IMG/VR virus record: IMGVR_UViG_3300020045_005861
Span: 1-24,334 of that record
Reading direction: 5' to 3' (one strand)
Length of the DNA stretch: 24,334 nt
DNA from: a virus
Lineage: Duplodnaviria > Caudoviricetes
The position numbers and the translations under genes are program-made. Under the pieces are notes generated by a model. The model ran no database searches. It worked only from the letters and a program-made list of their open reading frames with translations, and was not told where the DNA came from. Numbering within the stretch: position 1 is the stretch's first letter; the number at the start of each line of letters is the position of its first letter. Shown here one piece after another: positions 6,343-22,074 of the stretch.

Positions 6343-6743
6343 CTTGTCACCCTTGCTTGCCAGATAATATTAACGATTACCTGATACCAGGAATCGACGT
6401 TGCGAGAAATGCCCCGGCCAGAGCTGGTAATAAATACGTCCTGGCTGGAGTACGTGAATATGCGCCCCGCATAGAAATAATCGCGGATTGCCGTTGCCTT
6501 CTGTTTTGCGGTGCCCGCCCCACCGCCTACCGGGTAATTTAGATTGACCTGCATCACTCCGTCGATGAGGTCTTGCCCGTTATCGCCCAGTGTGTGGATG
6601 CTTGGCTGGTTGGGCATCATGAATATCTGCGCCCATGCCGTACCAGCCACGGGTGTAAATTCAAGGTTTTCGTGGGCAACGCTCAACCCAAACGACCCAG
6701 CAGTAAACGCGGCTTTGAGTGCGGAATCTATTTTGTGCGTCAT
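6339..6743 (-). CDS. Tail terminator / completion protein (DUF4128-like)
   Basis: 134 aa. Contains VAHENLEFTP and GVMQVNLNYPVGGG. It precedes the tail tube gene. Confidence 0.78.
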   Translation of the reverse strand: MTHKIDSALKAAFTAGSFGLSVAHENLEFTPVAGTAWAQIFMMPNQPSIHTLGDNGQDLIDGVMQVNLNYPVGGGAGTAKQKATAIRDYFYAGRIFTYSSQDVFITSSGRGISRNVDSWYQVIVNIIWQARVTR

Positions 6744-7138
6744 AGTTTATGCGCCCGCGCTTGCTCATCGACAAGCCTTTGAAACCGCGCCACGTTGCGC
6801 CGGACCATACCCTGAGGTGCCTGCCCGGAATGCCCGTATTCCAGTGCGATGGCATAGGGCAGGTTATTAACCAGAAATGTGACGCGCCCGCCTTTGAGTG
6901 ATTTGACAAACGATTCTGCCCGCGACACGGAACCAGCCCCGGTCGGGTCAAATCCTGCCGTTGTTCCGTCTTTCGGCCCGTCTATTGACGCCATCCAGTT
7001 GCCACGGAACCGCCCCGTATCAACAGGGGAATCCATGATTACCGAACTGAACAGCTTGATCTCGACGGCCTGAATCAACTCGTTGCTTTTCGTGCTGAAC
7101 TTGACGCGGAATTGATTTAATTCGCCCGCAAAGGTCAT
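6740..7138 (-). CDS. HK97 gp10-like tail completion / neck protein
   Basis: Contains SPVDTGRFRGNW and NNLPYAIALEYGHSGQAPQGMVR. Confidence 0.88.
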   Translation of the reverse strand: MTFAGELNQFRVKFSTKSNELIQAVEIKLFSSVIMDSPVDTGRFRGNWMASIDGPKDGTTAGFDPTGAGSVSRAESFVKSLKGGRVTFLVNNLPYAIALEYGHSGQAPQGMVRRNVARFQRLVDEQARAHKL

Positions 7139-9406: not shown

Positions 9407-10564
9407 TTAACCCAACAGAACAGCGCAATGCTCGGGCTTGATCATCTTGACGCCCCAGCAGCAGCTCACCTCGTACTGCATCTGGCGATACTGCGGGTAC
9501 ATGGCGATTTCAAATGCCAACCCAGAGCGAGGATCGACCAGAATCTCCCGGTCCGTCGCCATATCGCCAGCTTCCGGCAGGGCAGGGACGCGGGTTGCCA
9601 GCACAATCGCATTGCGGCTAAATGCCATGTTACGGGCCGCAGCAGCCACGACAGTGATGGCCTTTGTAGCCGCAGACATCGCGACTCTCAGGCCGGGGGC
9701 AGCGATAACGATAGTACCACCGCCAGACACGTCGGCATCACCTGTCACCACTAGGTACTTGTTTGAGTCGCCCGCGAACGTCACAACGTCACCGGCGATG
9801 ATCGTACCCGTACCAGCGGAGGCCAGGGTCAGGGTGGTAGCCCCTACTGCATAGCCCGCGTTGTTGGTAGTCGCGCTGGCACCAGTACCGACAGTAACGG
9901 CCTGCTTGACCTGGGCCGACTCACGAACTGCGAAGCCGTGCAGGTCCAGCAACACGCCTTGCCGCAGCAAAGTAGCGTCGTTGGCCTCGTTGGCCTTGGT
10001 CAGCTGCGCCAGGGTCCGCATTGCTGCGCCCGCTGAGGTGTCGATGATCAAATGACGGTCGGACAATGGCGCTCCGTTGTCATCGAGGATTTTCCGCACC
10101 TGCGCAGGATCGGCGAGGGTGGAGGCAAACGGCGTGGTTGCGGCAGTACCATACGCCCGAGAGGCGTAGATATGCAGCGCAGCCAGGTCGGTTTCAACCT
10201 CGTTTGCCAGTGTGCGGAACGCCTGCGCGAACTGGTCACGCATGACGTTCATCGTACCGGCCCCGCCGTTGTTCAGCGACAGGCTTTGCTCACCGTTCCA
10301 GCGCACAGGTACACGCCGGGACTTGGTGATGGTCAGACTCACGTTGCCGATGGTCTGATCGCCGTCATCGGGCGGTGTAACGCCGGGGGTGATGTCGCCG
10401 GCAGTCGAAGCCGGGGTGACGAAGGACCGAACAGTCTGGTTGACCGCAGCGCGCTCGGTGGTGGAATCCCGTGCAACTGCGGGGATGAACCCGACAAGCT
10501 CCCGGCTGACAACATCCAGCGCGGAATACATTTCGGGGAAAAGGTTGGTAATGGTGTTAGCCAT
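9407..10564 (-). CDS. Major capsid protein (P22 coat family)
   Basis: 385 aa. Contains ALDVVSRELVGFIPAV, LRQGVLLDLHGFAVRES, an insertion domain (IIAGDVVTFAG) and DPRSGLAFEIAMY..WGVK. A GAGG RBS precedes it. Confidence 0.93.
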   Translation of the reverse strand: MANTITNLFPEMYSALDVVSRELVGFIPAVARDSTTERAAVNQTVRSFVTPASTAGDITPGVTPPDDGDQTIGNVSLTITKSRRVPVRWNGEQSLSLNNGGAGTMNVMRDQFAQAFRTLANEVETDLAALHIYASRAYGTAATTPFASTLADPAQVRKILDDNGAPLSDRHLIIDTSAGAAMRTLAQLTKANEANDATLLRQGVLLDLHGFAVRESAQVKQAVTVGTGASATTNNAGYAVGATTLTLASAGTGTIIAGDVVTFAGDSNKYLVVTGDADVSGGGTIVIAAPGLRVAMSAATKAITVVAAAARNMAFSRNAIVLATRVPALPEAGDMATDREILVDPRSGLAFEIAMYPQYRQMQYEVSCCWGVKMIKPEHCAVLLG

Positions 10565-10584: not shown

Positions 10585-11292
10585 TTAATCGGTGATTGTC
10601 CCGCCACCCTTGAAGTGATCAGATCGCGCCTCGGGAGACATCCCACTGAACTGAGTCCGGGTGATGGTTTTCGCTTTTGCAGCCCCGCCGCCATTGCTAC
10701 CGTTGGCCCCGCCGCCAGTAGCTTTACTGCCAACGATCACCGGCGCAAATGCCGGATTGCTGGCGAATTCGTTTTTCAGATCGTCCAAAGTAGACGCGGA
10801 AGGTTTCCCAGCCGCATCTCGGACCACTGTTACAAAATGTCCATCCCGCTGTTCGGCAGCCAGTCGGCTCTTGATGTGTGGTATCAGCAAATCAGCACTT
10901 CCCTGAACGGCCATCTCGTTGGCGAGTCTCACCGCCACGTTATCCACCGTCATGGTTGTAACTGCTGATTGCATGTTGTTGATTTCGATGTTCAGCGCAG
11001 CTTCGCGGGCGTCGTACTTTGCCTGCCAGCTTTTCTCCAGAGCCTCGACATCGCCGCTTTTCTTCGCGGCCCCAAGCCTTGCGGCTTCGGCTGCTTCTTC
11101 GGCCTCCTTGGCCTTTTTGCTCTCGGCCTTTTTCTCGGCCAGCAGTTGATCGACCTTGGCTTTTAGGCCGGACACATCCTCGCCCGATGGCATCCCCTGG
11201 ATGTCGAGATAGAATTTGCCGTCCTTTTCTTTGTAGAGTTTCTTGGTGCTGTCGTCCAGATCGTCGATTGAATCAAGTTGATATTTTAGCAT
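10585..11292 (-). CDS. Capsid scaffolding protein
   Basis: Contains the charged coiled coil GLKAKVDQLLAEKK, KSGDVEALEKSW, LLIPHIKSRL and a Gly-rich GSKATGGGA linker. It lies just before the coat gene. Confidence 0.88.
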   Translation of the reverse strand: MLKYQLDSIDDLDDSTKKLYKEKDGKFYLDIQGMPSGEDVSGLKAKVDQLLAEKKAESKKAKEAEEAAEAARLGAAKKSGDVEALEKSWQAKYDAREAALNIEINNMQSAVTTMTVDNVAVRLANEMAVQGSADLLIPHIKSRLAAEQRDGHFVTVVRDAAGKPSASTLDDLKNEFASNPAFAPVIVGSKATGGGANGSNGGGAAKAKTITRTQFSGMSPEARSDHFKGGGTITD

Positions 11293-11295
11293 GTT

Positions 11296-11346
11296 GACTC
11301 CCTGAGTCGGTTTGCTGGCCCAGCCAGCGGCAATAGGCTTTCGCCC
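11296..11346 (-). promoter_or_regulatory. Tandem hairpins over the scaffold RBS (putative translational operator)
   Basis: GGGC-GAAA-GCCT, then GCTGGC-TGG-GCCAGC AAAC C GACTC-AGG-GAGTC AAC ATG. The last stem buries the AGGGAG SD. Confidence 0.6.
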
Positions 11347-11348
11347 GG

Positions 11349-12407
11349 TTAAATTCCTGCTTTCTCGAACGCCAGCGGTTCAAGCCGGCGCATTTCTGGT
11401 AGCGTGAGTGGCTGAAAATTCTTGCCAATGTTTAATTCTGCAAACCGTTCAGCAGTCAGCCCACCATTCCGCAGCAGCTTGCCGCGAACAGGCCCGACTG
11501 CCGCATCCTGGAAGCCTGCCGGCTGTTGTTTCAGCCAGCCGTAGTAAGTCTGCTCTGCCGGGACATAACCGCCCATGCTGGCCCTGGTTGCGCCCTCATC
11601 GAGAAAATCAAATCGCCCGTCTAACACCGCGACCGTGGTACTCCTACAATTCGGATGTATTGGCGGGCGCGGGCCTGAGTCAACCGGAAACACCTGACCG
11701 TCCAAAGACTGACACTGGGCCGATGTGCGCCCGTCCAGGGTCGATACCCACTGGACCCCGGTGATTACATTGCTGTTCTGGTTCCATGTCTCCTGACGCG
11801 CCACAGAGGCCGCATGCTGCACTGCCGTCCTGACTACGGTCGAGGCGTTGCGGTTGCTGATTTCTAGCAGCCCGTCCCGGTATTTGTTGGCTTTCGTGCC
11901 GCGCACCGTCTGCAATATTTTGCTGGTGGTCTGGCCCTCGAAAAACCCCTGCCGAATGGCCCCGGAAACCCGCTTGACCTCGACCGCCGACCAGTCTTTG
12001 ACGAATGGCTCCAGCAGCTTGCCACCAGATGGACCACGAACCGATAAAGGCGCAGTGAATATTGCCGCCCGCACCTGGTTGTGCGATGGTATGACCGCCT
12101 CGAACCCGGCGAGAACCTTGTCCATGGACCTGGCCTCGAACCCGGCCTCATAATCGGCAATCTCGATCAGCCTGCCGCTCAGCTCATCCCAATGCCGGGC
12201 ATAAATCGCATTCAGGTCGGACTCGACCACCGTCAACAACCGTTCCAACCGATCCCGGCTAAACTCCGTCATCACTCCCGACAATCTCAGCCGGATAGAC
12301 CGATCGACCTCCAAAAGAAACGCGGCAAACTGGTTGGCCTCGCCGGTCTTGACCCGCTCAAGCATGACCTGGTGCCGGGTGGTCTGCTCAACCAATTTCG
12401 ATTGCAT
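11349..12407 (-). CDS. Minor head protein (SPP1 gp7 / Mu gpF family)
   Basis: Contains VVRTAVQH, WVSTLDGRTSAQCQSLDG and PPIHPNCRS. Confidence 0.92.
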   Translation of the reverse strand: MQSKLVEQTTRHQVMLERVKTGEANQFAAFLLEVDRSIRLRLSGVMTEFSRDRLERLLTVVESDLNAIYARHWDELSGRLIEIADYEAGFEARSMDKVLAGFEAVIPSHNQVRAAIFTAPLSVRGPSGGKLLEPFVKDWSAVEVKRVSGAIRQGFFEGQTTSKILQTVRGTKANKYRDGLLEISNRNASTVVRTAVQHAASVARQETWNQNSNVITGVQWVSTLDGRTSAQCQSLDGQVFPVDSGPRPPIHPNCRSTTVAVLDGRFDFLDEGATRASMGGYVPAEQTYYGWLKQQPAGFQDAAVGPVRGKLLRNGGLTAERFAELNIGKNFQPLTLPEMRRLEPLAFEKAGI

Positions 12408-13818
12408 CTAACCCAAGCCCAGCCGTTTGGGATTCAACTTCTTCCCGGATTTCTTCGTCCGTTTTCTCGCCGTCGATTACCCCGTATTTCCTGAGTTGTC
12501 CCCACAGATCCGAGCTTGGTAATTGCCCTGACTGCCACGCACCGATCAAGGCAACGAGCATTTGGGGGTCGAGCCGGTGTTCGGTAAAGTCTTGATTGAT
12601 GCTGTATTCAATCTCCCCGGTCACGTTCATAAACCGGGCCGCCCATCCAAGCGCTTTGGTGTACGCCTCAGACACGTTGGCGCAAGCGAGGGACAGGACG
12701 GAATGATTGGCCTCCTGCTCGCCTTGTGATTCTGTTGCAGTTTTGACCGCCGTCCCCGGCTGGATTAGTCTGGCCCCGAGCGCAATCATCTGCTGCTCTT
12801 TCTGATCCATGGCTTCCTTTGCCAAGGTGTTCGGTTGCGCCTGGGCAATACCAAACTGCCCGCCCTCGGGCAAAAGGATTGGCGAGCGTGACCCGATGTA
12901 AATTCCTGTTTTCTCCAGGTGGTCGCGCCAGGATTCCGACAGCCCCGACATCCAGGGTTGGGCCTGCCCTACAAAAAACGCCGAGTCTTCGTAATCCGCT
13001 GAATTTCGGTAATGGGCGATGTTGATCTCGGCCATGTCATACATCGGTGACGGATCAACTGTGTGGTCGTTGTTGCTGGCCCCTACAAATGTTGCGGGAA
13101 TTTCGTCCCATGCCCGGCCCGCTCCATCGGTGATAATCCACGGGGCTTGATATAGCGCCCATTTATCACCGTCCCTGCGCCATATTTCCTGCGTGTAATT
13201 TCCGCCGTCATGCCGGAGTACACGGTATTGCGGGATGTGATCGACACCGAAACCGTCCGGCGTTACCTCTTCCGCCGTTTCGTCCAGCACCAGCAGGGTC
13301 AGCATATGCTTTGCCCCGACCTTGGTAGTGCGCCAGTTGATGACCTGCTGGGCCCGATACGGAACCACCGTCGAGCGGACGGTGCCTGAACTCATCTGTG
13401 CCCGTGACGTTTGTTCCGTGACCATCGGATAGTCGGCCAGCAGCAAATGCCGCCCCATGCCCAGCACAGCCTTGAGCGTTGCTTGGGACTGCTGATAAAC
13501 ACTGACCCCGGCCCCGTCGATGTCATCCGTCACATAATCCAGCGCCTTCGGAACTGCGATTGCTGGATCTTTCCGAAATGCCGCGCCTATCAGGCCCTGC
13601 AATGTCCGCCCGGTGGCGTTGTAAAACACCGCCCGCGCTAAATATTGCTTATATCTGATCGTGTTCTCGGGGCTTTTGTCGGACGGGTTTGGCTGGGGAA
13701 GATAGATAATGCCCTTTTCTTTGATCGCCTGTTGCCCGCAGCACACGTCACAGACCAGCGACCACGCATAGAGCGAGTTTTTATATTCCTCGCGCTGGAA
13801 TGTAACGTCATTTGCCAT
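12388..13818 (-). CDS. Portal protein (DUF4055 type)
   Basis: 476 aa after TerL. Contains YLARAVFYNATGRT, INWRT, NIAHYRNSADYE and MIALGARLI. Confidence 0.92.
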   Translation of the reverse strand: MANDVTFQREEYKNSLYAWSLVCDVCCGQQAIKEKGIIYLPQPNPSDKSPENTIRYKQYLARAVFYNATGRTLQGLIGAAFRKDPAIAVPKALDYVTDDIDGAGVSVYQQSQATLKAVLGMGRHLLLADYPMVTEQTSRAQMSSGTVRSTVVPYRAQQVINWRTTKVGAKHMLTLLVLDETAEEVTPDGFGVDHIPQYRVLRHDGGNYTQEIWRRDGDKWALYQAPWIITDGAGRAWDEIPATFVGASNNDHTVDPSPMYDMAEINIAHYRNSADYEDSAFFVGQAQPWMSGLSESWRDHLEKTGIYIGSRSPILLPEGGQFGIAQAQPNTLAKEAMDQKEQQMIALGARLIQPGTAVKTATESQGEQEANHSVLSLACANVSEAYTKALGWAARFMNVTGEIEYSINQDFTEHRLDPQMLVALIGAWQSGQLPSSDLWGQLRKYGVIDGEKTDEEIREEVESQTAGLGLDAIEIG

Positions 13819-15050
13819 CAGGTTGCCATTTTCATGTTGATTGTCATTGCCGGTTTAATAATCGGGTATTCGCTATGTATGAAATAGCCGCCGCCGTCCG
13901 GCAAGTGGTCCAAGCCCTGCGTTTTATCCGGGTCGCCGTTCTTGTTGTATGCCTGCTGTTCAAGACACCGAACATAGTTCGGGCACCGGTCAACATTGAC
14001 TTTGTAGCCGTGGCGGAATGCCGCATTCATGGCGTTGATTCTGTCCCGGATCGGCGGGTTTTTGTTCGGCGCGAACACCGAAAATCCCGCATCCCGCAAC
14101 ACCTTTAAATCTGTCAACCCAGCGTCGTTCGATTTTCGACTGCCGCCCGAACTGTCCGGGTAGACGTTGATCGAATGGCCCGCGTATCTGGTCTTAATCA
14201 CCCCGCACATATCCGGTGTGTCATATGCTTTCGTTATCTCGGCCACCGCCACCGGCTTGCCGTCCCGCTTAACATGGACCACCGCCGACATTTCGCCCAC
14301 GTTGAAATCCATCCCGACGAACAGCGGCTCTCCCGGCTTTTCGACCTCGTGCGTGTTGCACAACTTCCGGTCGAACCCGATATAAACCGTCCCCGTTGTC
14401 AGGTTGACGAACAACCCTTCGAGGTACGCATCCAAAAGATGTTCAGGGTAAATGTCCCGAAGCGACTGAATGTAATCGCTTGGCAGATGCGGATTGCTCG
14501 ATGTTGGAGCCCGGATCAGATCGTACCCTGGGAGTTTTTTTTCCTCCCATGTCTCATAGACAAATCGGAACCCTTCCGGGGTCGTTGCAACCGCTGCCGT
14601 ATTGGGTGCGCCTTCCGGCTTTTTCTGTCGGTTGCGAGAAAGCACCCTGCGCCACACATCCGCCGCGTCATCTCTTTTAAGCGTGTCCAGCTCATCAACG
14701 TCCGAGTCTCCAACCTCGTATCCGATGATTCTTCCGGGTGTGTCCATGGATCGGAAGATAATCCGCCCACACCCCTGAATATCCAGCACGTTGTGCGGGT
14801 GTTTTGTCAGCCGGTACGGAACGCCCAGGCTGGACAGCATTTCCTCGAATCGCGGCCATGCGATCATTCGGATCAGGTCATAAGTCGGCTCGTAAAACGC
14901 CCGGTCTGTTGTGGGCGTTTTGATCTTGCCAAGGATCGCCCGGACGATTAAAGCCTCCGTCTTGCCGCTACCAAACCCGCCAACGAACGCGGGATATTTT
15001 GCCTCGCTGAATATGAACCTGTCCTGCTGGACAGTGGGATTAATCTCCAT
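13818..15050 (-). CDS. terL: Terminase large subunit
   Basis: Walker A GGFGSGKT, Walker B SDVDE, TTPEG coupling motif, and nuclease motifs VGMDFN and DHLPD. Confidence 0.96.
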   Translation of the reverse strand: MEINPTVQQDRFIFSEAKYPAFVGGFGSGKTEALIVRAILGKIKTPTTDRAFYEPTYDLIRMIAWPRFEEMLSSLGVPYRLTKHPHNVLDIQGCGRIIFRSMDTPGRIIGYEVGDSDVDELDTLKRDDAADVWRRVLSRNRQKKPEGAPNTAAVATTPEGFRFVYETWEEKKLPGYDLIRAPTSSNPHLPSDYIQSLRDIYPEHLLDAYLEGLFVNLTTGTVYIGFDRKLCNTHEVEKPGEPLFVGMDFNVGEMSAVVHVKRDGKPVAVAEITKAYDTPDMCGVIKTRYAGHSINVYPDSSGGSRKSNDAGLTDLKVLRDAGFSVFAPNKNPPIRDRINAMNAAFRHGYKVNVDRCPNYVRCLEQQAYNKNGDPDKTQGLDHLPDGGGYFIHSEYPIIKPAMTINMKMAT

Positions 15051-15552
15051 TCGGTCGATTGATGACTAGCGTTATCGCTCCGGGCGGAATTATCAGATCG
15101 TCTTTGAAAGCCCCCACGTTAATGTGCCGGCCAATCAGTTCCAGTCGTCTCGTTCTGTCCGACAGCTTGACCTTAACTACGGATGATGTGGGCCTTCCCT
15201 CCGTGGGTTGCATTTGCATCACATCCACACCGGCAACAAGCCCTTTGCGCCAGATTATCGGCCACTCTCGGACAGGCTTTAGTGACCCGTCATCGCTGTA
15301 CAGGTCTGCCATGTCTGCGTCGGCCTCTTCCGCCAGTCGTTTTAGCAGCCAGTCGGCATCGATCCCCGTCCTATCTGACCGGCTTGCTTTGGCTTTTGTG
15401 ATGGCTTCGGCTATTTGCGGTTTTCTAAGGTTTTCCGCGCCCACGGACGCAGCGGTTTTAACGCTGTACCCAGCCCTGATTGCCGCTTGTGTTGCATTCA
15501 AGTCGAGCAGGTATTCGTCGATAAACCGTTGCTGCTTTGGTCTCAGCTTCAT
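15040..15552 (-). CDS. terS: Terminase small subunit
   Basis: KQQRFIDEYLLDLNATQAAIRAGYS..TA...GAENLRKP is the Terminase_2-type signature. Confidence 0.95.
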   Translation of the reverse strand: MKLRPKQQRFIDEYLLDLNATQAAIRAGYSVKTAASVGAENLRKPQIAEAITKAKASRSDRTGIDADWLLKRLAEEADADMADLYSDDGSLKPVREWPIIWRKGLVAGVDVMQMQPTEGRPTSSVVKVKLSDRTRRLELIGRHINVGAFKDDLIIPPGAITLVINRPNGD

Positions 15553-15555
15553 ATC

Positions 15556-15588
15556 GGCCCCCGGCCTTTATGTTTGCGGCCCTGCCGC
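15556..15588 (-). promoter_or_regulatory. Tandem hairpins over the terS RBS (putative translational operator)
   Basis: GCGGC-AGG-GCCGC AAAC ATAAA GGCC-GGG-GGCC GAT ATG, the same architecture as upstream of the scaffold gene. Confidence 0.55.
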
Positions 15589-15591
15589 GAG

Positions 15592-15873
15592 TTAGGATAG
15601 CGAGTAGGTGAGCGATGGTGTACCGCCACCCGTTACGGTCAGGCAGTACGTTGCATTCGGCCCCAGGCGCCAAGCATCCCCGAAATTGGCGGTATAGGCC
15701 GCGCCGGTTACGGCCCGCCATGTTCCGTCGGGCTGGTGTAATTTAATTGTAACCGTTGCGGTACTCCATGTTCCGGCGACATCGATAGAGGCCTCGACCT
15801 CATCTTTGCCCTGTACGGTCCAGACAATAACACCGTCTGCGACATCACCCGTGATTGTGCCTTGCTTGATCAT
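15592..15873 (-). CDS. Small all-beta virion-type protein (possible spike base / cement)
   Basis: 93 aa with GTWSTATVTIKL..DGTW and GGGTPSLT; an AGGT RBS precedes it. The function is inferred. Confidence 0.6.
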   Translation of the reverse strand: MIKQGTITGDVADGVIVWTVQGKDEVEASIDVAGTWSTATVTIKLHQPDGTWRAVTGAAYTANFGDAWRLGPNATYCLTVTGGGTPSLTYSLS

Positions 15874-15925: not shown

Positions 15926-17635
15926 TTACACTGCCCAAGATCCGGCCTCCTCTGCTGCGACGGTATAGGAGTTTGCCGTGTCCCGCACGTTTTTGTCCTC
16001 ATATGCCAGCCATGCGTCGGACTCCTGGTTGGAGGAAAATCGTATTTCTCGGATTGAACCATTAAATATTTCTGCCGGGCTCGTATCGCCAGCACCGATG
16101 AACAGGGTATCTCTTGTTGACGGAATTGTTCCCGCAGAGCCCGTAGCTTTAGTGGCTCCGCCATTGTGGCCAACGGTTCGATTTCCACCAGTGGCGAATT
16201 TTACATATCCACCATGCCAGACGTGATTTGTTGGGTTGACCCCGGTGTTTAGCCACGACCCCCCGTTACTATCCCAAGTGCTTAGGTTGGTTCCCGATTG
16301 CGCTACTAGTGTTGATCTGTCGTTGCCTGTTCCGTTGACGCTCAGGCTAACTATGCCATCCTGTTCTGCGACCTCTGGGCTAAACCAGGCTCGCATGGTC
16401 CCGCTGGTGTAGTTTGTGGGCATTTGAGCCGACACCCACTGTGACCCACCAAACCGCCGACCATCTCTGGGTCGTAGTCGGCGCACAAATCGACTGCCCC
16501 CCCCACCATCCGTCAAAACATGCAGATCGGTTTCGTCGTATGCCAGACCCTCGATGTTTGGGTCGCCCGACGAGTGCCAGTAGACAACGCCGATTACGGT
16601 CCCGGTAAGCCCAACCTGATAGATTTGTCGCAGGCCCGATACATCGCTGGTGATGTAGTAATAACTGCCGACTCTGGTAATGCCCTGGATGTTGGGAATT
16701 GTTGATGACAGAGTTACATCGGCCTCGCGTGCGAACGTACCGAGGTTATACCTGTAGAGTTTATTATTTGTGTGGTAGGACGTTACAGTAACCCGGTTGT
16801 CGCTCGCCTCGACCACCAGGCCGGAGACCTCATGGCCTTGCGCGGACAGGTCATGTTCGGTGATATAGGCCAGAGTGGTGGCGTTAAATTCTGCAATGCA
16901 CATCCCGGTGGACGAAGCGCCGAGATAGGTTTCCATGGGTGCATACAAAACACTGTTATAAACGTCAATATCGCCTACATGGTCAGTGACGTTCGTCGTG
17001 GCTCCGCACGGGTTGGCATTTGTTGTCTGGACCACCCAGCTTGAGTTGAACCGCTTGAGTGTGTTTGTGTCGGATCCCCAATAACCACCGTCGCGAATAG
17101 CAATTCCCTGGTGACATCCGGTGTCTGACGACGTTGCAGCAATACCCAGCTGGCTGATCGGATAGGTTGCGGACGGCGAATAGGTAAATGTGTTTGCATT
17201 GCCCGTGCTTTCTGCCAGCGCAGCGGCTGCGGATGTGATTGGCATCCCGTGCAGGTGGACGACTGATTTGAAGTCCGATTTCCACACATTCGCCGGGGTG
17301 CGGGTTATAGTTTCGTCGGGGTTGCCGTAATACAGATAAACGATGGTGTTAGATACATGCGACAGGGTCGGGGCTTTGGCGTACAGACGGATCATCCTGT
17401 TATCCGGATCGTATAGTACCAGCTCCGTTTCCAGCCGTGTCCCGCTAGAATCGGTTACAACGATGTCGCTGCCGTCGGATTTTGCTTTGGTCCAAATGCC
17501 TGCATCGACATTGGCCTCGGTGATCAGAAGCGGAAAGTCAGTCAGAGTTGCCGTCAGGCTGGCAGACGCTACCGTCACTACCTGCCGGTAAGCAAAGCCG
17601 CTTGCGGCCGCAGCCCCCTGAAAGAACATCCCCAT
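15926..17635 (-). CDS. DUF2341 + beta-propeller + LamG/ConA-like lectin protein (putative receptor-binding appendage)
   Basis: The N-terminus has LTDFPLLI, AKSDGSDIVVTD and IVYLYYGN (DUF2341-like). Five (Q/E/S)G(I/L)-type blade repeats follow. The C-terminus has LFIG..FNGSIREIRFS..SDAW (LamG-like). Confidence 0.75.
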   Translation of the reverse strand: MGMFFQGAAAASGFAYRQVVTVASASLTATLTDFPLLITEANVDAGIWTKAKSDGSDIVVTDSSGTRLETELVLYDPDNRMIRLYAKAPTLSHVSNTIVYLYYGNPDETITRTPANVWKSDFKSVVHLHGMPITSAAAALAESTGNANTFTYSPSATYPISQLGIAATSSDTGCHQGIAIRDGGYWGSDTNTLKRFNSSWVVQTTNANPCGATTNVTDHVGDIDVYNSVLYAPMETYLGASSTGMCIAEFNATTLAYITEHDLSAQGHEVSGLVVEASDNRVTVTSYHTNNKLYRYNLGTFAREADVTLSSTIPNIQGITRVGSYYYITSDVSGLRQIYQVGLTGTVIGVVYWHSSGDPNIEGLAYDETDLHVLTDGGGGSRFVRRLRPRDGRRFGGSQWVSAQMPTNYTSGTMRAWFSPEVAEQDGIVSLSVNGTGNDRSTLVAQSGTNLSTWDSNGGSWLNTGVNPTNHVWHGGYVKFATGGNRTVGHNGGATKATGSAGTIPSTRDTLFIGAGDTSPAEIFNGSIREIRFSSNQESDAWLAYEDKNVRDTANSYTVAAEEAGSWAV

Positions 17636-18150
17636 TACTGCGTCACCTTCGCGCCGAGAATGTAGTTCGTCCCGTCGAATACCCCGGCTATATGATCTAT
17701 GGCACTCGCTGCGGTGGATAGTGTTGGTGTGTTTTTAAATACTGCATTCCACGTTGGTACTCGTGTGCCCGTCCCGTCCTGAGTGATGGTCAGCAGGAAT
17801 TCCGTATACTGCCCAGCACTCAAGGTTGGCGCGTTTGTGGGCGCTGCGATAGCCGCATTACCCGTCAACGTGGCGGTAAACCCGTGCTTCCCGCTCGACC
17901 AGCTCCATGTGACAGTTGTATCCTGACTTCCAATCGCATGTCTGGGCTTGATAATGGCCCCGGTGAATATCTGGTCTGCTACTCTGGCAAGTGCTGCAAT
18001 GGCCTGAGAAACCCTTTGTGCCGTCCACCGGCGTACACTCGTAGACGTTCCTGCCTCCGCGTCTGTCTGACTGACAACAGCAACCTGTGCGTTATACGCG
18101 GTCTCGATTTCGGCGTTATTTATCGCGCCGTACTTGAGTGCCCTTCTCAT
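17635..18150 (-). CDS. Fibre-like structural protein
   Basis: The start is revised to ATG 18150 (ATGA overlap), giving 171 aa. It has the fibre repeat SQTDAEAGTSTSVRRWTAQRVSQAI and LTITQDGTGTRVPTW..PTLSTAASAIDHI...DGTNY. Confidence 0.68.
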   Translation of the reverse strand: MRRALKYGAINNAEIETAYNAQVAVVSQTDAEAGTSTSVRRWTAQRVSQAIAALARVADQIFTGAIIKPRHAIGSQDTTVTWSWSSGKHGFTATLTGNAAIAAPTNAPTLSAGQYTEFLLTITQDGTGTRVPTWNAVFKNTPTLSTAASAIDHIAGVFDGTNYILGAKVTQ

Positions 18151-18308
18151 TTTTTCACCCCGGTAACAGCCCACAGTGCAGCAACGCCCCATGCGCAGGA
18201 TTTTACGAACTCCAGATAGTTAAACGGGAATTGTGCCCGGTCCTGCTCGATACAGTACGCAACCGCCCCACAGACAATCCACACCGCCAGAATTAATGAG
18301 CAAATCAT
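18147..18308 (-). CDS. Small membrane protein (53 aa, two hydrophobic segments)
   Basis: MICSLILAVWIVCGAVAYC...SCAWGVAALWAVTGVKK, coupled by ATGA at both ends. Confidence 0.55.
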   Translation of the reverse strand: MICSLILAVWIVCGAVAYCIEQDRAQFPFNYLEFVKSCAWGVAALWAVTGVKK

Positions 18309-19984: not shown

Positions 19985-20013
19985 TTGCTCATAGTCCCGG
20001 ATAGGACTATAGT
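19985..20013 (+). promoter_or_regulatory. Sigma70 promoter of the + strand cassette with a palindromic operator
   Basis: TTGCTC, 17 nt, TATAGT. The spacer and -10 carry a perfect inverted repeat, ATAGTCC-cggata-GGACTAT (19991-20010). Confidence 0.72.
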
Positions 20014-20177
20014 TGCATTACAAGGTCAGGGGGGTCCTGGCCGAGAGGAGAAGGAAATGGCCTGGCCTGGCGCGGTTTCAGTACCGCGCAATCGGCTAGC
20101 CAATGACAACCTTGTCAAAGCCCCCTTCGGGGGGCACAGCGCCGATAATGGCGCATCTGCCTGCAGGAGGGCGCGAA

Positions 20178-20579
20178 ATGGCCACACTGGCCGAACTACA
20201 AAATGCCCAGCAAGCCGCCCATGCGGCCTGGGCAGCCTGCCCGGAGAAATCCCGTGCCGACAAAGCCGATAAGTCTCGGCTCAAAAGCCTGATGGCGGAG
20301 GCCACCAAAGCGGTGGCTGCGGCCAAGCGGGCCGCAGAGCCAGCGGCTCCGGTCGTGGACCAGGCGGCGCTAGCTGCCGCATTCCTGGCCCGGCAGGCCC
20401 AAAACGAGGCGGACGCAGCCCTGACGCGGCGCGTCTATGCCGCCTGGCGGCAGTACCAGACGGCCACGGACTGGCCGCGATGCGGTCAGGGCTGGCCCGC
20501 CAATTCGAGCGAGCGGGCTGCCGAGGCGCTGCTGCGCCAGCACTCTACCATGCTGGCCGAGAGCGGCTGGGATGAGTAG
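20178..20579 (+). CDS. Hypothetical Ala-rich helical protein (cassette gene 1)
   Basis: AGGAGG RBS 7 nt before ATG 20178; 133 aa. Confidence 0.72.
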   Translation: MATLAELQNAQQAAHAAWAACPEKSRADKADKSRLKSLMAEATKAVAAAKRAAEPAAPVVDQAALAAAFLARQAQNEADAALTRRVYAAWRQYQTATDWPRCGQGWPANSSERAAEALLRQHSTMLAESGWDE

Positions 20580-21147
20580 CGGCTGGATGGGCAACTACCC
20601 CGAGAGGGGTAGGGCGCGATTTTCGCCAAAAACCGGCCCGACCGAGCTGGTCGCGCCAAAAAGCGCCTTTCAGCCGGATTCGTCCGGCGGATACGGCGTC
20701 CCGTCTGTGACGGGCGACCGTCACGACCAGGTGGCCAACGAGGCACCGGAGTGGTTCCGACTAGTTGTGAGCGCGATCTGTGAGAGCGAGTCGAGCCAGA
20801 GGCTTGTCGCCCGACAGATTGGCGCTGCCGGAAAGTACCGTTTTTGGACGGTGCCCGCCGGCATTAGTTCGGCAAAAGAGCTTTTCGCGGCAGCCGATGC
20901 CATGTGTGCCGCACACAAAGACGCCTGCGCGGCATATGTTGCCAAAGCCCGCGCCGACGAGAACGCGGCGAACCTGGCCTTCCGGCTGAGCCGGATCGCG
21001 CTGTTGCATGAGCGCGTCGCTCGCCGGACCGATGACGTGATTGTCATCGAAGAACGCCAGGAAACGGGCACCCTCGTCATAATGGATGGCGATAATAGGA
21101 CGTGGGAGCTGTCCACATTTTACCCAGACAAAGAGGTAATTTTATGA
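20572..21147 (+). CDS. Hypothetical protein (cassette gene 2)
   Basis: ATG 20572 overlaps the gene 1 stop and the TGA is coupled to gene 3; 191 aa. Confidence 0.65.
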   Translation: MSSGWMGNYPERGRARFSPKTGPTELVAPKSAFQPDSSGGYGVPSVTGDRHDQVANEAPEWFRLVVSAICESESSQRLVARQIGAAGKYRFWTVPAGISSAKELFAAADAMCAAHKDACAAYVAKARADENAANLAFRLSRIALLHERVARRTDDVIVIEERQETGTLVIMDGDNRTWELSTFYPDKEVIL

Positions 21148-21443
21148 AATTTGCATTTGTTTCGCGCCACGCTCCGACCCCGGAGCAATTCGCCCTGGCA
21201 ACTGCCCAGGACATCGAGCTGATTCCGGTCGGGGATCAGGATGCATTTAGCATCACCTGGGCTGCGGTCCAGGATCACCCGGCGGCCCCGTTTGACGGCG
21301 CGGTTGTGGTCCACCCGGCGGCGGCCTTGCGGCTGGCCCCGATGATGCTGGTCGGCGTGTATGAAAACGCCAACCGGGCTCCGGAGGGTGAAAGGCCATC
21401 GTTTACGGCGGTGGCTCTGCACATCTACAACCGGGTGGATTGA
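21144..21443 (+). CDS. Small Rossmann-like SRH-motif protein; candidate Csx15/16/20-like ring nuclease (cassette gene 3)
   Basis: GAGG RBS; 99 aa: MKFAFVSRHAPTPEQ...GAVVVHPAAALRL...VGVYENANRAPEGERPSF. The CDS is secure but the function is inferred. Confidence 0.6.
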   Translation: MKFAFVSRHAPTPEQFALATAQDIELIPVGDQDAFSITWAAVQDHPAAPFDGAVVVHPAAALRLAPMMLVGVYENANRAPEGERPSFTAVALHIYNRVD

Positions 21444-21751
21444 TGAAAATCACCATCCCGGAAAACGTCGGCTTTGCCGACCTGAAATTAACACGCGACC
21501 CAACCACCGGCGCGGTGGAGTTTGCCTGGCAGCCCATCCAGGCGATCTGTACCGCGTCGGGCATCGACCCGGCCATTTTTACCGACAGCCACGAGGACAC
21601 AGTGGCGGGGTTGATCGTGCAGTGGTATGGGGCGCATCGCGCCCAGGGCGGCGCCAGCGACCCGGTGGCGGAAATCCTGATCGCCGAGGTAGAGGCAGAG
21701 GACACCTACGGCCCAGAGCACGATCAGCCCGGCAGCGGGCGTGTACAATGA
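21440..21751 (+). CDS. Acidic hypothetical protein (cassette gene 4)
   Basis: 103 aa, overlapping both neighbours by 4 nt; contains FADLKLTRD..EDTVAGLIVQWYGAHR..GGASDPVAE. Confidence 0.72.
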   Translation: MMKITIPENVGFADLKLTRDPTTGAVEFAWQPIQAICTASGIDPAIFTDSHEDTVAGLIVQWYGAHRAQGGASDPVAEILIAEVEAEDTYGPEHDQPGSGRVQ

Positions 21752-22074
21752 GCAGCCTGTCGAATTACACATCCCTGCTCGACTGGGGCATCAACGCCCA
21801 CATCCTGGAGGACACGCCGACAAACATCAGTCGGAAACGGGCGCTGCTGGCCGAGCTGAACCGGCACTGCGGCACTAACTACAGCGAGCAGCACCTGAAT
21901 AGCTGGTACGCGGGGCGCAAAAAAACCCCGGAACCGGTGTGGCGGTACCTGTGCTGGAACCTGATCGAGTGCGAACTCGGCTACGACCAGCCGGAGCTGG
22001 CGGGCGAGTTGCTGCGGTTGATGGGGTTGGAATTACCGTCGGACGCAGTCCCCGCATTTCAGGCAGCCGATTAA
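21748..22074 (+). CDS. Putative HTH (Cro/XRE-like) regulator (cassette gene 5)
   Basis: ATG 21748 (ATGA overlap); 108 aa. RALLAELNRHCGTNYSEQHLNSWYAGRKKTP fits an XRE-type recognition helix ending in W-x-x-G-x-x-x-x-P. Confidence 0.6.
   Translation: MSSLSNYTSLLDWGINAHILEDTPTNISRKRALLAELNRHCGTNYSEQHLNSWYAGRKKTPEPVWRYLCWNLIECELGYDQPELAGELLRLMGLELPSDAVPAFQAAD

Follow-up and report, generated by a model that had tools for sequence, protein, structure and literature searches.

Twin triloop hairpins over the ribosome-binding site of a phage scaffolding gene, a candidate operator read by the scaffolding protein

Late gene module and paired hairpins of the window

The window analyzed in the present study, i.e., the whole stretch of 24,334 nucleotides (nt) of the Caudoviricetes record IMGVR_UViG_3300020045_005861, is a 24.3 kb phage contig whose minus strand carries a late module comprising lysis genes, terS, terL, and the genes for portal, head-morphogenesis protein, scaffold, major head protein, and tail. 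Two of these genes, scaffold and terS, are each preceded by a tandem pair of small RNA hairpins, which form the subject of this study. The scaffold gene (10585..11292, minus strand; ATG at 11292) encodes a head scaffolding protein of 235 amino acids (aa), the candidate RNA binder, and was recognized by its match to the PHROG 206 profile (E 5e-54) and its position ahead of the major head gene. The terS gene (15040..15552, minus strand) encodes a terminase small subunit of 170 aa (Pfam PF03592, Terminase_2; PHROG 51), and the major head (coat) protein gene (9407..10564, minus strand; PHROG 283) is the likely target of a further hairpin pair described below.

The four leader hairpins were found on the minus strand where a sequence-only reading of the window had placed them, each with a Watson-Crick stem of 4-6 base pairs (bp), a C-G closing pair, and an NGG loop. 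In the scaffold leader, hairpin 1 (11314..11328) has 6 bp and the form C-UGG-G, and hairpin 2 (11296..11308) has 5 bp and the form C-AGG-G; in the terS leader, hairpin 1 (15576..15588) has 5 bp with C-AGG-G, and hairpin 2 (15556..15566) has 4 bp with C-GGG-G. Both second hairpins contain the Shine-Dalgarno sequence (SD), with the best anti-SD match located there (-8.6 and -7.7 kcal/mol), and end 3 nt before the ATG (11292 and 15552, respectively). Tandem pairs occurred twice on the minus and never on the plus strand, compared with a mean of 0.01 and never two in 1000 dinucleotide shuffles, for a pattern defined post hoc, after the motif had been sighted; of 27 gene starts checked in the window, those of terS and scaffold alone carried a pair. 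Burial of the ribosome-binding site (RBS), as claimed by the sequence-only reading, holds insofar as hairpin 2 covers the SD in both leaders, but the scaffold hairpins were only partly formed in a 131-nt context, with closing-pair probabilities of 0.44 and 0.32 (competing fold) vs 0.98 and 0.98 for the terS hairpins. Likewise, the AAAC linker shared by the two leaders of the window was not conserved in homologues, and the C-NGG-G loop of all four hairpins has to be widened to Y-NGN-G for the family as a whole. Searches of Rfam 15 returned no match in the window at E <= 1 and none over the motif in 4 related loci (E <= 5) or in 20 loci (E <= 3).

Several structures near these pairs were also recorded. 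A small hairpin with a GAAA tetraloop (11335-11346, minus strand) lies right behind the head-morphogenesis stop codon; in many relatives, this position, immediately before scaffold hairpin 1, is occupied by a complete intrinsic terminator. A lone 5-bp C-AGG-G hairpin is located within the scaffold open reading frame (ORF) near codon 32 (11191-11203, minus strand). In addition, the Rfam RNAs Proteo-phage-1 and int-alpA scored above their gathering thresholds at L090:1060-1140 and L089:13435-13501, respectively, in two related loci, unrelated to the motif.

Conservation of the scaffold-leader element

Homologous scaffold leaders were examined in a core set of 235 loci gathered by scaffold similarity (201 representatives, with many Pseudomonas prophages among them), where a Y-NGN-G hairpin was required to end 0-14 nt ahead of the start codon. 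Such a hairpin was present at 187 of 198 scaffold starts, with an NGG loop in 157 of them, while the same rule selected 1/189 head-morphogenesis and 3/171 portal starts. A loop-blind survey, in which any triloop hairpin was accepted with the loop sequence free, recovered 155 second and 151 first hairpins in 168 distinct leaders. The middle loop base was G in 149/155 second and 147/151 first hairpins, and the closing pairs were C-G and U-G in 135 and 10 cases (together 145) for the first hairpin and in 143 and 5 of 151 (together 148) for the second. Moreover, the loop-to-loop distance was 19-21 nt in 122/151 leaders, and loop 2 started 11-14 nt before the ATG in 132/151. When 48 of 57 diverse leaders were aligned with MAFFT, nine irregular leaders having been removed, 89.7% of cells were paired, 114 cells had changed on both sides compared with 29 in shuffles, and the covariation score reached 0.64 vs 0.19 for shuffled and 0.03-0.11 for slid controls. 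The twin Y-NGN-G hairpins thus form an RNA element that is maintained over the scaffold RBS across homologous leaders and shows covariation there, in agreement with the sequence-only reading.

The element is common, occurring in Pseudomonas, Acinetobacter, and enterobacterial prophages as well as in environmental and cultured phages. Among 18 cultured phages, both hairpins were present in phiES15, TRS1, pAEv1818, and IME1369_01, one hairpin was detected by the same rule in PA73, Dhillonvirus Bas15, eiAU, JeffCo, and Scapp, and nine were without any.

Individual loci showed further variants. In Bas15 (L241:5878-5915), which infects E. coli K-12, and eiAU (L246:5958-5996), the closing pair of hairpin 1 is inverted to G-C around UGG with a regular hairpin 2, and the scaffold segment considered in the next section is of a diverged GLK type. 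In Serratia phage Scapp (L251), about 85 nt of the scaffold gene end are repeated just inside the annotated coat start region, reflecting either a duplication or an assembly artefact. Locus L165 carries two tandem pairs 300 nt apart (6614-6648 and 6913-6948, plus strand), the first of which precedes an 83-aa ORF inserted before the scaffold gene. In L124 (13951-13985, plus strand), the scaffold leader of the window recurs in nearly identical form some 6 kb downstream of scaffold, and the ORF behind it resembles a tail assembly chaperone by position and first residues, making it a possible extra target.

A scaffold segment that follows the loop type

Comparison of scaffolds with two leader hairpins (n = 48) and those with none (n = 15) pointed to the start of a long helix, namely codons 42-55 of the window scaffold (GLKAKVDQLLAEKK; 11128..11169, minus strand), as a candidate RNA-reading segment whose type follows the loop type. 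Within it, L51 was present in 45/48 vs 0/15, E53 in 47/48 vs 1/15, and K46 in 45/48 vs 2/15 scaffolds. Among 75 scaffolds with <85% mutual identity, an NGG or NGA leader hairpin accompanied all 49 carriers of GLK..ELL.EKK, compared with 4 of 26 non-carriers. The middle domain (residues 128-190), which had been the first candidate binder, was rejected, as its conserved residues are present in motif-less scaffolds as well.

This association was followed in loci retrieved through the segment. DNA coding for GLKxKNxELLxEKK alone retrieved 120 loci with 52 non-redundant proteins (the GLK set), among which two hairpins were found at the start in 26 (4 of 10,400 shuffles) and, by a relaxed rule, in 39. 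In this set, 22 proteins form a remote subfamily at 24% identity and with an N-terminus of its own; its members are still matched by PHROG 206 (E 1e-22 to 1e-38) and are followed by coat genes. Two hairpins were present in 18 of these 22 loci, and in 20 of them the portal gene lies directly upstream of scaffold with no head-morphogenesis gene between. The 14-residue segment is the best-kept stretch between these subfamilies. A second remote sample of 65 further loci yielded two hairpins in 40 of the 50 with at least 8/11 peptide matches and in 0 of the 15 with fewer.

An NGU loop was predicted beforehand for a second clade, which carries ALKRAK(D/E)HEK in place of the GLK-type segment and was retrieved via that peptide alone (57 loci, 38 non-redundant leaders). 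These 38 leaders contained 31 NGU triloops (0.9 expected), often with other closing pairs, together with 0 NGG and 4 NGA, while 51 GLK-set leaders contained 66 NGG/NGA (4.1 expected) and 4 NGU. Internal loops of the ALKRAK clade, situated within the scaffold gene, read GGT in 16/16 and 34/35 cases, and loop base 3 was found to switch jointly at all sites of a genome.

Regarding the wider distribution of the segment, a profile search collected 139 proteins containing it, mostly 200-245 aa long or fragments, which were considered as proteins alone, apart from their DNA context. A peptide-alignment scan gave 80 loci, judged to be mostly close relatives, which were excluded from the counts. With the predicted scaffold model, Foldseek gave no match in PDB at E <= 0.001, and VIA-align returned generic helix matches only (best Z 5.7). 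For residues 120-192, the ESM Atlas gave unnamed phage clusters and weak leads under 0.9 to Phage_scaffold, DUF6651, and DUF4355.

A second pair associated with the coat gene

The system is larger than the two pairs of the sequence-only reading, since a third pair was identified in the window, and across the family the scaffold leader is accompanied by a second pair ahead of the coat gene. In the window, this pair is internal to the scaffold ORF on the minus strand and consists of site A (10705..10713; 3 bp, C-GGG-G), formed by codons 194-196 (Gly-Gly-Ala) in a disordered linker, and site B (10679..10691; 5 bp including one G-U, C-GGG-G), around codons 202-204, which ends 114 nt before the coat ATG. 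In the predicted model, the Gly-rich linker (residues 192-206) has a predicted local distance difference test score (pLDDT) <50. The loop codon was GGG at 264 of 287 internal sites, whereas the same tripeptide carried it in 37 of 239 cases from other structural genes. Furthermore, site A was paired in 53 of the 75 scaffolds, whereas 16 +/- 3 were expected from the codon usage of each gene, as computed over the 61 scaffolds whose amino acids permit pairing. Its stem varies together with the amino acids (Gly-x-Ala, Ser-x-Ala, Thr-x-Gly), one clade retains the hairpin in a shifted frame, and L163 has lost site A and carries a pair between scaffold and coat instead. These comparisons argue that the internal RNA site constrains the amino acids and codons of the scaffold linker. 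Frameshifting at the internal G-run was rejected, given that NGU and NGA variants occur without the run. An extended lower stem under site A was likewise rejected; it appeared in single folds only, with register shifts, and the consensus fold retains 3 bp.

In the remote subfamily, an intergenic pair was found in 27/47 loci, its end lying 65-137 nt (median 88) ahead of the coat ATG; in 7 loci where scaffold and coat are 0.8-2 kb apart, the pair has stayed with coat. In the core family, the first internal hairpin precedes the coat ATG by a median of 132 nt (43 loci). In 25 non-redundant remote coat leaders, the 3' arm of hairpin 2 can pair with sequence downstream of it (6.1 Watson-Crick pairs on average vs 4.0 shuffled), and this helix is followed by a U-rich tract (4.5 vs 2.6 of 8 in shuffles). 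Both thresholds for such a terminator-like helix and U tract were passed by 16/25 remote coat leaders vs 0/33 scaffold-leader controls, hairpin 2 was retained in the unconstrained fold of 1/25, and one position of the helix varies among U-A (9), C-G (9), and U-G (4). The remote coat leader thus has the layout of a protein-controlled attenuator, in which the unbound leader is predicted to terminate transcription and the leader with bound twin hairpins to be read through. The internal pair of the window likely serves coat expression too; as a guess, it could shield coat expression from polarity or decay after repression of the upstream ORF.

When the twin hairpins were forced in some remote coat leaders (for example, L596:3882-3960, L632, and L629), the freed 3' arm of the terminator-like helix could pair further downstream, which is a possible third helix locking the read-through state.

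The copy before terS

A covariance model built from scaffold leaders only ranked the terS leader as the top non-training site in the window (E 0.004). Where TerL identity reaches 65% or more (15 loci including the window, some of them near-duplicates), the strict pair precedes terS in eight loci, and three more have hairpin 1 and a 3-bp hairpin 2; hairpin 1 of the window's terS leader was also found before terS in L010, L089, L237, L263, L264, and L270. The co-regulation of scaffold and terS suggested by the sequence-only reading is partly supported, in that the motif recurs before terS in close relatives, but it would be limited to that clade. The pair precedes terS in 1/128 loci with TerL <65% identical and in 1/50 and 0/45 loci of two other terS clusters, and a few further pairs stand before genes of the terS region (L040, L083, L124, and L165). 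Since the terS pair is largely restricted to close relatives, coupling to packaging would be a clade feature. In the 65 remote loci, no pair was found before any ORF upstream of scaffold, the terS genes there being left unassigned. TerS proteins encoded after the motif share no more than about 55% identity with that of the window or give no direct match, and because of these differences TerS is unlikely to be the reader.

In L013 (2296-2331), L032 (2179-2214), and L072 (1706), all on the plus strand, a tandem pair was observed before an unannotated ORF of 180-188 aa about 1.5 kb upstream of terS.

Proposed mechanism and alternative readers

In phage P22, free scaffold (gene 8) represses its own synthesis, and procapsid assembly relieves the repression. 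For the family studied here, we propose that unassembled scaffold probably acts as an autogenous repressor reading the twin hairpins as its operator, with a probability of roughly 0.6 on the comparative evidence. A scaffold oligomer would grip the two loops, about 20 nt apart, via the start of its long helix (residues ~42-55), and its binding over the RBS would block initiation of the scaffold gene and, in the clade of the window, of terS. Procapsid assembly would consume scaffold and lift the block, such that free scaffold could serve as a report on head assembly. In the remote subfamily, binding would hold hairpin 2 of the coat leader closed and prevent the overlapping terminator, allowing the coat gene to be transcribed, and spare scaffold would in this way turn itself down and coat up.

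The full circuit, which we regard as tentative and somewhat short of even odds, would have the scaffold helix read the triloops by a code (GLK..ELL.EKK for NGG/NGA, ALKRAK.HEK for NGU), repress scaffold and terminase translation, antiterminate coat, set the scaffold:coat ratio, and gate packaging, with the RNA site dictating linker residues. If true, a structural assembly chaperone would be both a translational repressor and an antiterminator. The comparison yields a candidate operator of 35 nt, a segment of 14 residues as candidate binder, and two specificity classes occurring in nature; so tiny a peptide-hairpin pair with orthogonal variants would be a useful part for synthetic biology.

Several observations tell against scaffold as the reader or against parts of the circuit. 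The leaders of the covariation alignment had been picked because they fold, and their stem pairs with two-sided change (9/11) were not above shuffles (198/500). The sequence-only reading had named free scaffold as the perhaps responsible binder, which the independent association of peptide and loop supports, but this correlation holds between few clades; 2-3 independent pairs on well-supported branches were found, none significant, and the link is clade-level. The peptide occurs without hairpins in 11/52 proteins of the GLK set and 8/50 of the second remote sample. In the ALKRAK clade, 23/38 leaders are without a Y-NGN-G hairpin of at least 4 bp and 15/38 without an NGU triloop of any closing pair. 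Scaffold has no recognizable RNA-binding domain, residues 42-55 being modelled as a plain helix. As for the coat branch, the pair of L609 and L637 remains behind the scaffold gene and not near the coat start, the terminator-like helices have long loops and some weak U tracts, and no terminator layout was found at site B in 38 core scaffolds, window included.

Other gene products of the module were considered as binders. Coat protein and TerS were rejected because their families vary under a constant motif, and the head-morphogenesis protein because 20/22 remote loci are without its gene between portal and scaffold. Another phage protein evolving with the head module, most plausibly portal (or else a small regulator outside the retrieved flanks), is an unlikely reader, though the best placed of the alternatives. 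Portal stands beside scaffold throughout the sets (171 ORFs) and is 22-30% identical in the remote subfamily, and any clade-specific protein of this kind could correlate with loop type equally, as a clade-level correlation cannot separate linked genes. However, the site covers the RBS of scaffold and almost never that of portal, and the 14-residue segment is kept best where the subfamilies have otherwise diverged, its graded loss paralleling that of the hairpins.

It is less likely still that no trans factor is involved and that the hairpins are static structures setting a low or coupled translation rate, or marks for RNA processing or stability. By hiding the SD, hairpin 2 would by itself lower initiation, and the G-rich loops of second hairpins are partly explained by the SD. 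Yet the loop is also retained in hairpin 1 and at the internal sites, where the SD plays no part, the spacing is fixed at 19-21 nt, loop base 3 changes together throughout a genome, and the two mutually exclusive folds of the remote coat leader imply that a switch input is needed.

CsrA/RsmA proteins bind as dimers to two GGA hairpins that cover an RBS, and NGA loops with GGA occur in some leaders; a host RNA-binding protein of this or another kind is nevertheless a very unlikely reader. None of the six loops of the window (UGG, AGG, AGG, GGG, GGG, and GGG) is GGA, which is a minority in relatives, and the loop class follows the type of phage scaffold. Both classes occur in phages named for one host genus, Pseudomonas, which likewise disfavours a host reader.

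Finally, action as DNA, with palindromic operators or extruded hairpins serving transcription or packaging, appears highly improbable, even though every hairpin is an inverted repeat and one copy lies at the terS start, where headful-packaging phages often have their pac site, because the stems vary freely with compensation, G-U and U-G pairs (closing pair included) are tolerated on the coding strand as in an RNA, and the loop is strand-specific with a position tied to start codons.

Comparison with known systems

The twin-hairpin system resembles P22 autoregulation, Aca2, and ANTAR regulation, and by their defining features it is a member of none. For the scaffold/coat balance in tailed phages, the autoregulation of P22 scaffold (bioRxiv 2022.12.13.520362) is the one genetic precedent. 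The literature reached, mostly not subscription papers, held no defined RNA site for this balance, no operator for P22 scaffold autoregulation, and no description of the twin-hairpin element or of scaffold-controlled coat antitermination, so the element is apparently undescribed. The likeness to P22 lies in a site at the scaffold gene's own translation start; the differences are the PHROG 206 scaffold family, a defined RNA site, a candidate reading segment, additional targets (terS and coat), and the loop code. With regard to the P22-type N-terminal requirement, residues 42-55 co-vary with the loop here, with few independent pairs.

In ANTAR regulation (EutV, NasR, and AmiR), according to PMC3369931 and PMC8164766, a dimer binds two small hairpins with conserved loop bases; the second stem forms in alternation with a terminator, or else both hairpins together overlap the RBS. 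Similarly, the RBS is overlapped at scaffold and terS, and alternation with a terminator was computed in the 16 remote coat leaders mentioned above, not at the internal pair of the window. ANTAR targets are hexaloops with A1 and G4, in contrast to triloops with a middle G here, and the proposed input here would be assembly state rather than phosphorylation or a metabolite. Pfam searches gave no ANTAR match, whether for the scaffold (E <= 0.1) or for 14 proteins of the window (E <= 0.001). Aca2 is a phage protein whose dimer binds two hairpins in the 5' untranslated region of its own operon and blocks ribosome binding, as described in PMC13551039. It differs in being a helix-turn-helix regulator with DNA-binding activity as well; no such domain was detected in the candidate here, a structural assembly chaperone.

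Structured RNAs have been predicted ahead of other scaffold genes, Phage_GP20 being the former name of Pfam PF06810 (Phage_scaffold). PMC10690425 lists GP20-a and GP20-b (RF02991 and RF03003) and six csRNAs as predicted structured RNAs directly upstream of GP20 genes. GP20-a and GP20-b are motifs of 107 and 72 nt in another scaffold family, whereas the present element spans 35 nt, without an Rfam match in the window or the 24 related loci. The comparison with these csRNAs was made apart from their alignments, and the element may equal one of the 10,006 uncurated candidates of that source; for PMC5737381, the comparison covers the main text. In addition, C-G-closed (pseudo)triloops of the iron-responsive element (IRE), hepatitis B virus (HBV) epsilon, and human immunodeficiency virus (HIV) TAR serve protein recognition, as stated in PMC3884659. 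These have a 3' bulged base and are single sites in eukaryotic or viral RNA, while regular tandem triloops are found here, such that the likeness is one of resemblance only.

Other features of the window

A block of plus-strand ORFs (19985-22074), PHROG-negative and opposite to the late module, separates a Q-like gene from the lysis genes. On the minus strand, the interval from the lysis genes to terS contains a 569-aa DUF2341/laminin G-like ORF and two ORFs of unknown function (15926-17635, 17635-18192, and 15592-15873), an unusual location for genes of structural appearance.

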